A stretch of DNA of 37,881 bases from Candidatus Jordarchaeia archaeon (GCA_029856435.1 JAHQXB010000134.1:1-37881); one strand, 5' to 3'; shown: positions 10,594 to 11,292, numbered from the stretch's first letter. A program made the numbers and translations. The notes: generated from the letters alone by a model not told the origin.

Positions 10594-11292
10594 TTAGTAG
10601 AGTCCAACTTGAAACTGTTCAATATTTTTGTAGCTCTCATCTCTGGTGACGAGCCTTGCGTTGTTTTCTATGACAACAGTTGCAATTAGTATGTCTATAA
10701 GGTTCACTTGTTTACCTTTTTCTTTTAAACTCAAATTCAATGTTTGCTGCTATTCTTTGCGGAAGAAGCTGTAAATGGCAAAACTTTCTTTCAAGAAACC
10801 TTACAGCATCGTTATATTCCCTTACTCTCCCCGCCAGTTTTAGTCCACTCAAGATTTCCCAAGCCACAATTGAGGTGGTTCAGAGGGGCGTTAAAACTGC
10901 TTCTAATTAGAATAAAGTTTCCACTTAAACTTCCAATAGTTAACGTTAAAGAAAAACCATTAAACCCATCATTCCTCAAAAACAACCACACATAACATGT
11001 CGTGCAGCCGACTCCAGCCCAGAATGCGGAAGGCTCATAAAAGCCCAAAAGAGGGCAGGACCACAATTGGGAACATCCTCCCACCGAAAGCAAGGGAGAT
11101 GTGCCTGCTTCAATCGGTCCCCTGGAGAAACGGTCTCCCCATGAAACCGGGGGGAGGAAGATCTAAAGTTACGTGAGGTTAACGTTGGGTCAGAACCGGA
11201 TGCTCTCTAATTTCTTTATATTTTTGGATTGAGGGCTCCTTTCCTCTCAAAAAGTCTACCAAGAAGGTTGTTTCAAGGCAGTATCTTTGCGT
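10594..11292 (-). pseudogene. vapC: VapC/PIN toxin pseudogene, frameshifted and split by a ~310-bp insertion
   Basis: Fragments reassemble to YCLETTFLVDFLRGKE...KYKEIREHPVL|TTSIVAWEILSGLKLAGRVREYNDAVRFLE...VLPFTASSAK..IAANIE.LSLKEKGKQVNLIDILIATVVIENNARLVTRDESYKNI. The start position reads ACG, and there are several frameshifts. Confidence 0.85.
10880..11189 (+). mobile_element. ORF-less ~310-bp insertion (putative non-autonomous IS110/IS1111-like or MITE-like element)
   Basis: Interrupts vapC. TCAGA is repeated at 10880-10884 and 11190-11194, and there is a short subterminal inverted repeat CGTTAA/TTAACG (10889, 11179). Several hairpins lie in 11040-11160. The family assignment is inference. 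Confidence 0.65.

Follow-up and report, generated by a model that had tools for sequence, protein, structure and literature searches.

A gene-less element that splits vapC in an Asgard genome is very probably a mini-element of IS607 descent

What has split the vapC gene on contig JAHQXB010000134.1 of Candidatus Jordarchaeia archaeon (GCA_029856435.1), and from which kind of mobile element does the intruding DNA descend? The contig, analyzed at its full length of 37,881 nucleotides (nt) and referred to below as the window, carries within a vapBC locus an insert of about 0.3 kb that belongs to a repeat family. We compared the window with the rest of the metagenome-assembled genome (MAG) from which it comes (G000; 3.54 Mb in 181 contigs) and with related genomes (G001 to G005). 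The host is an Asgard archaeon of the Jordarchaeia/Freyarchaeota type. The insert is very probably a non-autonomous, protein-less derivative of an insertion sequence (IS) of the IS607 family, akin to a miniature inverted-repeat transposable element (MITE) but without the inverted repeats, in which the omega-RNA region of the parent has been kept.

Removal of positions 10889-11199 brings both parts of vapC into one frame, colinear with the intact PIN protein of G004 (138 amino acids, aa), in which the site is uninterrupted. In the tblastn alignment, the restored joint reads EIREH followed by PL, a stop and TTSIVAW, against EIREYPLLTTSIVAW in G004. An earlier examination of the DNA alone (the sequence-only reading) had described an insert of ~310 base pairs (bp) that contains no open reading frame (ORF) and whose removal rejoins vapC, and both the tblastn frame and the empty site in G004 confirm this; the bounds it gave, 10880-11194, are off by 5-9 nt at each end. 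It also took TCAGA, present at 10880-10884 and 11190-11194, for a target site duplication (TSD), a repetition that turned out to be coincidental. The right TCAGA is part of the conserved element end ...GGGTCAGAACGG, where 50-54 of 54 right ends have A/G/A; the left copy belongs to the host, and G004 has AAAGA in its place. A TSD model, with 10885-11194 excised and TCAGA duplicated, leaves the frame off by one, whereas a model with GG at the junctions gives the correct frame. The ORF ending in KEKPLNPSFLKNNHT and a stop (10744-10995), suggested as the tail of a transposase, begins in antisense vapC and spans the junction, and its tail region is indel-variable among copies of the family; it is not a transposase remnant. 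The G004 vapBC pair is intact, consisting of the PIN protein (Pfam E-value 2e-17) and a 73-aa VapB (Pfam VAPB_antitox, E-value 7e-19). In G000, the insert is not the only damage to vapC, which also has a TGA in frame at 10880-10882, a region of indels, and a frameshift at ~10718-10740, and vapB has a frameshift near 11428-11440; the entire locus is decayed beyond mere interruption, and vapBC in this genome is dead.

Three copies of the family, in vapC and on contigs C7 and C89, have empty counterparts in G004, and in each case the length fits "element plus one GG" exactly. The empty vapC site reads ...AAAAGA/GG/ATAC; the empty C7 site reads TAAATGG/GG/CAGC (TAAATGGGGCAGC), and the filled one consists of TAAATGGGG, the element (TGTT...GAACGG), and CAGC. 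A boundary model that places the upstream GG inside the element fits the length of none of the three empty sites. Across the family, the two positions after the right end are G in 43/54 and 50/54 copies, respectively. In the left flank, G is found in 31-39 of 43 ends at positions -4 to -1 and T in 23-25 of 43 at -9, -7, and -5, so that the left-flank consensus is TTTWT-GGGG; the right end finishes ...AACGG. Beyond T-rich/GGGG and GG(T)T, no specific target is common to the 43 left and 54 right flanks. IS607 elements are known to insert at GG, with (G)GG preferred, without a TSD or terminal inverted repeats (TIRs) and with short direct repeats at their ends (PMC6188088). GG at both junctions, with no other duplication and no TIRs, is the published IS607 signature and fits exchange over a 2-bp core. 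In the clostridial IS607 IStron, the TnpA target and the transposon-adjacent motif (TAM) of TnpB are the same, 5'-TGGG; the omega-RNA scaffold ends ...UCGG, self being told apart at position -3; a mini-IS stripped of tnpA and tnpB undergoes excision in trans, and trans action holds for the omega-RNA as well (10.1101/2023.11.20.567912). The T-GGGG flank and the AACGG end of the family show the same G/C difference at -3 as the published TGGG and TCGG.

The family comprises at least 46 copies of at least 170 nt in G000, with a median pairwise identity of 81%, and a covariance model (R1) recovers ~50 right-end modules. All copies are sharp-ended, with GGGG immediately before TGTTAAAACTGC on the left and GG immediately after GGTTAACGCTGGGTCAGAAC on the right, and the end-to-end form is GG, TGTTAAAAC...GGGTCAGAAC, GG. 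No ORF is conserved across the copies. There are no TIRs; neither of the ends, GGTGTTAAAAC... and ...GGGTCAGAACGG, is an inverted copy of the other. Motifs of the GTTAA(C/A) type, read from the sequence and from the alignment of copies, occur at least five times in one orientation and are probably binding repeats of TnpA. The sequences CGTTAA and TTAACG, which had been read as a short inverted repeat, do exist, as instances of this recurring motif and not as terminal inverted repeats. The former tnpA promoter region may lie in the AT-rich left part of the element. The closest relative of the vapC copy is 87% identical to it, and young pairs are few (97.6% and 96.6% identity); the members of the 96.6% pair have different flanks, so near-identical copies have inserted independently. 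The family accounts for ~50 GC-rich "structured" islands and for many contig breaks in the annotation of G000. In a search of one genome per species across about 185,000 species, an exact 21-mer from the right end was found outside G000 only in the MAGs of Candidatus Jordarchaeia QZM_A3 and Candidatus Freyarchaeota SQRJ_82, both Asgard.

The ends of the family match those of an IS607-family element of ~1.9 kb in a sister species (G003). Relatives of the element are present in G001 and G003; G002, G004, and G005, from the same genus, lack it, save for one or two weak, distant right-end matches in G004 (C63 and C210). On the left, the homology covers the first ~35-55 nt, upstream of tnpA in the G003 element (window positions 10886-10920 match element positions 5-39 at 86%). 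G003 contains the full-length type and a ~750-bp deletion derivative, both delimited by the same ~55 nt at the start and ~100 nt at the end; in the derivative, a MerR/HTH_17-type ORF (MEKFYTTGEVAKLFRVS...) at the start is fused to a C-terminal fragment of TnpB. The full-length type on G003 contig C152 consists of the left end, the gene for a 205-aa TnpA, and a TnpB gene cut by the contig end. Pfam identifies in this TnpA an HTH_17/MerR domain (residues 4-51, E-value 8e-12) and a Resolvase domain (residues 60-191, E-value 9e-25). The match of the C152 TnpB to OrfB_IS605 is weak (E-value 0.0013, under the Pfam cut-off), and the motifs VIVLEKLKGIRGRMNYSKQMNGRLHRWSF and CPECG...CPKCG...DRD..RNLL are readable in the TnpB of G003. 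On other G003 contigs, the 3' end of tnpB encodes ...CPECG, 12 aa, and CPKCGMEEDRDIIAVRNLL..., with the stop ~50 nt ahead of the right end. A serine recombinase with an N-terminal helix-turn-helix (HTH) domain, accompanied by TnpB, is the IS607 architecture (PMC6188088). Because its ends are those of an element encoding a serine TnpA and TnpB, the mini-element can be assigned to IS607 descent. G003 has its own mini-elements, of ~400 bp, which combine 107 nt of the left end with 295 nt of the right end.

The whole of the G000 mini-element consists of ~105 nt of the left end and the last ~205 nt, made up of the right end preceded by the closing ~45 codons of tnpB (Table 1). In the window, a frame is open from the SPECG motif to the ancestral tnpB stop, which lies 55 nt before the boundary. 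In DNA-level alignments of three copies with the tnpB stretch for the Zn-knuckle and RuvC-III, the middle of the element scored z = 3.4-3.7 globally against shuffles, and the local block GCCCAGAATGCGG reached z = 5.1. Given the indels among copies, this stretch is no longer coding. The DNA that encodes TnpB omega-RNA spans the tnpB 3' end and the right end (10.1101/2023.11.20.567912; PMC10055086). By position, the retained 3' module corresponds to the omega-RNA-encoding region of the parent and might act as a guide RNA, the putative guide being the flank from 11198 or 11200 onward.

Table 1. Positions of the mini-element, its parts and junctions, and the vapBC remnants in the window
Feature	Position	Strand	Basis and details
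Inserted mini-element, 311 bp including one flanking GG	10889..11199 (equivalently 10887-11197)	+	Empty site in G004; frame restored on removal
GGGG, left junction	10885..10888	+	10887-10888 is the GG crossover core; with the T-rich flank, target/TAM-like motif
GG, right junction	11198..11199	+	Second copy of the crossover dinucleotide; three empty sites
AT-rich left-end part	10889..10995	+	GTTAA(C/A) motifs at 10890-10897, 10926-10931, 10940-10951, and 10961-10966, as read; left end homologous to G003
tnpB C-terminal coding relic	11016..11144	+	Zn-knuckle SPECG 11016-11030; degenerate DRD...NIL in other frame; old stop TGA 11142-11144
Omega-RNA-like module (former tnpB 3' end and right end), finishing ...GGGUCAGAACC before GG	11000..11197	+	Positional homology to tnpB 3' end/right end of G003
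Most conserved right-end block	11093..11197	+	Common to G003 and G001 elements, about 80-88% identity; last ~105 nt 77-88% identical to the G003 right end
vapC pseudogene, N-terminal part (residues 1-40 of the G004 ortholog)	11200..11319	-	tblastn, 91% identity
vapC pseudogene, remainder	10594..10888	-	tblastn high-scoring segment pairs in two frames
vapB antitoxin pseudogene	11273..11490	-	tblastn high-scoring segment pairs in two frames; frameshift near 11428-11440

Under the IS607 reading, tnpA and almost the whole of tnpB would have been removed by an internal deletion. Given a serine TnpA in trans, which could bind the GTTAA-type motifs close to either end, the element could be excised as a circle, and this circle would recombine into a target over the 2-bp GG core, with T-GGGG preferred, leaving GG at both junctions and no further duplication. 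Once the lineage had split from that of G004, one such insertion would have broken vapC; the alternative is a precise excision of the element in G004. If transcribed, each copy could yield a scaffold ending ...GAACGG joined to a guide from its own right flank, and such an omega-RNA would be usable only by TnpB supplied in trans. The sequence-only reading had envisaged a recombinase-less guide-RNA mini-element mobilized in trans; that general idea survives for IS607 and TnpB and fails for the IS110 family to which it was applied.

Several observations weigh against the IS607 reading. With TnpA and TnpB of G003 as queries, only distant IS607 lineages with unlike ends came up in the G000 assembly, and no cognate full-length IS was found. 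The best G000 TnpA, on C177, is 53% identical to that of G003, with element ends unlike those of the family and a decayed tnpB. The assembly contains one DEDD IS110 gene (C134:6240-6611), 17 TnpB Zn-ribbon matches, and two Y1 TnpA genes, none of which adjoins a family copy, and 0 of the ~50 right-end modules lie beside any of the 17 tnpB matches. The parent is either lost or unassembled; MAG assemblies often miss multicopy IS elements. The copies are ~19% apart, although G004, whose flanks differ by only 4-12% (84-96% identity at the three loci compared), is empty at each of the three tested sites, a history hard to reconcile with plain decay after insertion. It is possible that several old master lineages seeded recent insertions, that copies mutate faster than their flanks, or that G004 lost its copies via the precise excision typical of serine recombinases. 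Rejoined vapC differs from G004 at three of the six core-adjacent bases, above the ~10% divergence of the flanks; two of these three differences are synonymous third-position changes (CCT/CCC and CTT/CTC), which supports the alignment of the rejoined sequence, and the third creates TGA. Finally, homology with tnpB reaches only moderate significance over the middle ~90 nt.

The remaining counterpoints concern the RNA. The whole window has no Rfam match at the gathering score; at the locus, with E-values up to 10 allowed, the sole match is a spurious long noncoding RNA (E-value 0.67), and the window contains no tRNAs. The RNAalifold consensus of 26 copies is weak (-14.8 kcal/mol, one covarying pair). 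The hairpins pointed out in the sequence-only reading are present, and the 200-nt stretch that contains them folds no better than shuffles (minimum free energy z = -0.7 on the plus strand and -1.2 on the minus strand). By hand, we assembled the candidate helices UUCC/GGAA, GGGC-GNRA-GCCU, UCCC/GGGA, GACCCA/UGGGUC, and GUUAC-GNRA-G(U)UAAC. Scored on 33 right ends from four genomes, this five-helix model, which was drawn from the consensus itself, pairs in 89.7% of the cells versus 36-59% with the partners slid, and its covariation is no higher than in shuffles. Mismatches in single copies are mostly uncompensated, as expected of decaying copies. To judge by reading, the tetraloops vary inside GNRA (GCAA/GGAA/GAAA). 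A reduced right-end relative on C165 (17693-17778, minus strand), with one hairpin deleted and no tnpB nearby, has an outer helix, UUUUUGGG-CGAA-CCCAAAAA, with UUUUU...AAAAA replacing UUCC...GGAA. The GNRA variation and this helix swap could be hints of an RNA and are suggestive only.

It is quite possible, if slightly disfavored, that the family consists of inert IS607 relics that are not mobile now and produce no functional RNA, the 3' module having been kept because TnpA needs it at the right end or by an accident of deletion. Most copies are old, as the median identity and the nearest neighbor of the vapC copy indicate, the helices decay uncompensated, the folding energy is unexceptional, and the assembly contains no cognate tnpA or tnpB. 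The last point is blunted by the frequent loss of multicopy IS elements from MAG assemblies, and the few young pairs, one with different flanks, together with the contigs broken by near-identical copies, speak against inertness. So does the fact that two families with separate deletions (~311 bp in G000 and ~400 bp in G003) keep 205-295 nt of the 3' end versus 55-107 nt of the 5' end. In vitro, TnpA required ~40-70 bp of an IS1535 end (PMC6188088), which is less than this 3' length. Such retention in two differently deleted mini-element families of sister species would be explained if the ~50 gene-less copies were guide-RNA-only parasites of IS607 that use TnpB made elsewhere, a proposal that we consider unlikely on the whole. 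Transcription of each copy, perhaps driven by a left-end promoter that formerly served tnpA and has been retained, would give an omega-RNA whose guide matches the empty site of that copy, so that the copy would be restored there after excision (homing in trans); alternatively, the copies could soak up and redirect TnpB.

The lack of TIRs and of an obvious TSD, the TnpB relic, the omega-RNA-like 3' end, and the T-rich left flank would also suit a PATE (palindrome-associated transposable element) of the IS200/IS605 type, that is, one with subterminal hairpins that a Y1 TnpA moves as single-stranded DNA (ssDNA) and that inserts 3' of a short TAM, and there are two Y1 TnpA genes in the genome. Such an origin is very unlikely given that the TnpA of the parent is a serine recombinase carrying an HTH domain at its N terminus and that GG is found at both junctions, with empty sites that fit a 2-bp core exchange. 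Furthermore, the left end has direct GTTAA repeats instead of a convincing subterminal hairpin, and its flank is merely loosely T-rich before GGGG, with no fixed TAM of 4-5 nt.

The identification put forward in the sequence-only reading, an IS110/IS1111-derived mini-element whose 3' bridge or seek RNA is used by a DEDD recombinase in trans, now appears scarcely credible. The absence of an ORF and of long TIRs, the GC-rich, hairpin-capable 3' part, and the superficial TCAGA repeat made it tempting, and the genome does encode a DEDD_Tnp_IS110 protein (C134). However, the related elements bear a serine recombinase and TnpB, not a DEDD recombinase, and the mini-element has no similarity to the C134 IS110 locus; homologous copies tied to a non-DEDD transposase refute the bridge/seek identity by the sequence-only reading's own criterion. 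The 43-54 flanks share no target of 10-14 nt, only T-GGGG/GG, and the right-hand TCAGA belongs to the element. Neither RNAalifold nor single-sequence folding brought out a two-loop structure, and the proposed resemblance to the 3' non-coding regions of IS110 elements could not be substantiated. A classical MITE derived from a DDE transposon was rejected, there being no TIRs and no fixed-length TSD and the junctions sharing only the 2-bp GG core.

Other IS607-like loci are present in G000. The element on C177 (11300-13150, minus strand) represents a separate IS607 lineage, with an intact tnpA and a tnpB broken at several points by frameshifts and stops; all that its right end has in common with the mini-element is the motif order (ATGTGCC...CCGYT...CCATGA...GAGGGA.GG...ACAACGG). 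A tnpB 3' end on C41 (5162-5400) is followed by a right end near-identical to that of C177, and model R1 matches the tnpB-linked right ends of neither locus. A third IS607 lineage or mini-element family, with the left end CGCCCATGCTAACAGTTCTAAAATAGCGGTGTTTAAATAG... upstream of tnpA starts, is found at C53:13580-14287, C35:11-450, C92:47-400, C98:2-330, and C79:38941-39084, with several copies at contig ends. Pairing end motifs of the vapC family 0.4-30 kb apart, in search of an autonomous copy in G000, yielded chance pairs only (e.g., on C149). No transposase adjoins the internal fragments of the 5' part alone on C161 and C171, and copies broken within a nested MITE account for the 3'-only pieces found at contig ends.

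Another MITE family, younger and ~185 bp long, has the TIRs GGGCGATAGATTCGC...GCGAATCTATCGCC and comprises ~30 copies with 90-97% identity (C138:38011-38205 in G000; also C45, C22, C84, C136, C126, C150, C24, C132, C113, and C38). About a third of these MITEs lie at one exact position of the mini-element, the GGGCGAAA hairpin (window ~11128), in both orientations, which points to a strong target preference or to inversion. The same MITE also breaks two tnpB genes (C162 and C92). On C91 (~203-352), a mini-element copy contains a nested insert of ~150 bp with inverted ends (ATGCGTTACCC...GGGTAACGCAT) right after the old tnpB stop. In G003, the ~750-bp derivative (L048:1973-2035, G003:C134) has a filler of ~63 nt between the tnpA stub and the tnpB fragment; this filler is 83% identical to G000:C134:6657-6717, the sequence beside the sole IS110-type DEDD gene of G000, and may be the scar of an IS110 insertion into an IS607 element.

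Among known systems, the family shares with IS607, IS1535, ISC1926, and CboIStron the ends of an element encoding an HTH-resolvase TnpA and TnpB, the lack of TIRs, short repeats near the ends, insertion at a GG core that leaves GG on either side, a preference for G-rich targets after a T, and a right end finishing ...CGG (published, ...UCGG). It differs from these IS607 family members in being gene-less and 311 bp long versus roughly 1.7-2.5 kb, in a target that is one G longer (T-GGGG versus TGGG), in its Asgard host, and in that no cognate autonomous copy was found in its genome. With IS110/IS1111 elements, it shares only the general idea of a mobile element with a structured RNA that specifies a DNA target. 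Those elements encode a DEDD recombinase as opposed to serine TnpA and TnpB, and their bridge RNA pairs with target and donor at a conserved target; no target of this kind is shared here. The tempting reading as a bridge-RNA element is thereby corrected.

Likened by description and not by sequence, the archaeal element SMN1 is similarly ~320 bp long, ORF-less, multicopy, and served in trans by the transposase of a larger IS. This larger IS is ISC1733, a member of the IS607 family. To our knowledge, SMN1 has not been described in terms of an omega-RNA module. It is a 320-bp non-autonomous element of Sulfolobus islandicus that is mobilized by ISC1733 (PMC3718332). The PATE-like mini-elements of the IS200/IS605 group "often encode omega-RNAs" for TnpB acting in trans (Meers et al., PMC10055086). 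Like the family described here, PATEs are protein-less, keep the transposon ends and the guide-RNA region, and need transposase and TnpB in trans. Unlike it, they are moved as ssDNA by Y1 TnpA, their subterminal hairpins are palindromic, and their TAM is strict, as opposed to IS607 descent and a GG core.

A literature search for TnpB together with MITEs returned no description of natural IS607-derived omega-RNA mini-elements. The kind is nevertheless already known from SMN1, from the omega-RNA-bearing IS605 PATEs, and from laboratory mini-IS607 constructs, and the surprise is modest. With its empty sites, the G000 family is a documented natural case, in an Asgard archaeon, of IS607-derived mini-elements that have lost both genes and, by position, kept the guide-RNA region. 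Next to these systems, it offers a natural test case for whether omega-RNA is used in trans and whether the IS607 target, here T-GGGG, equals the TAM outside Clostridia.

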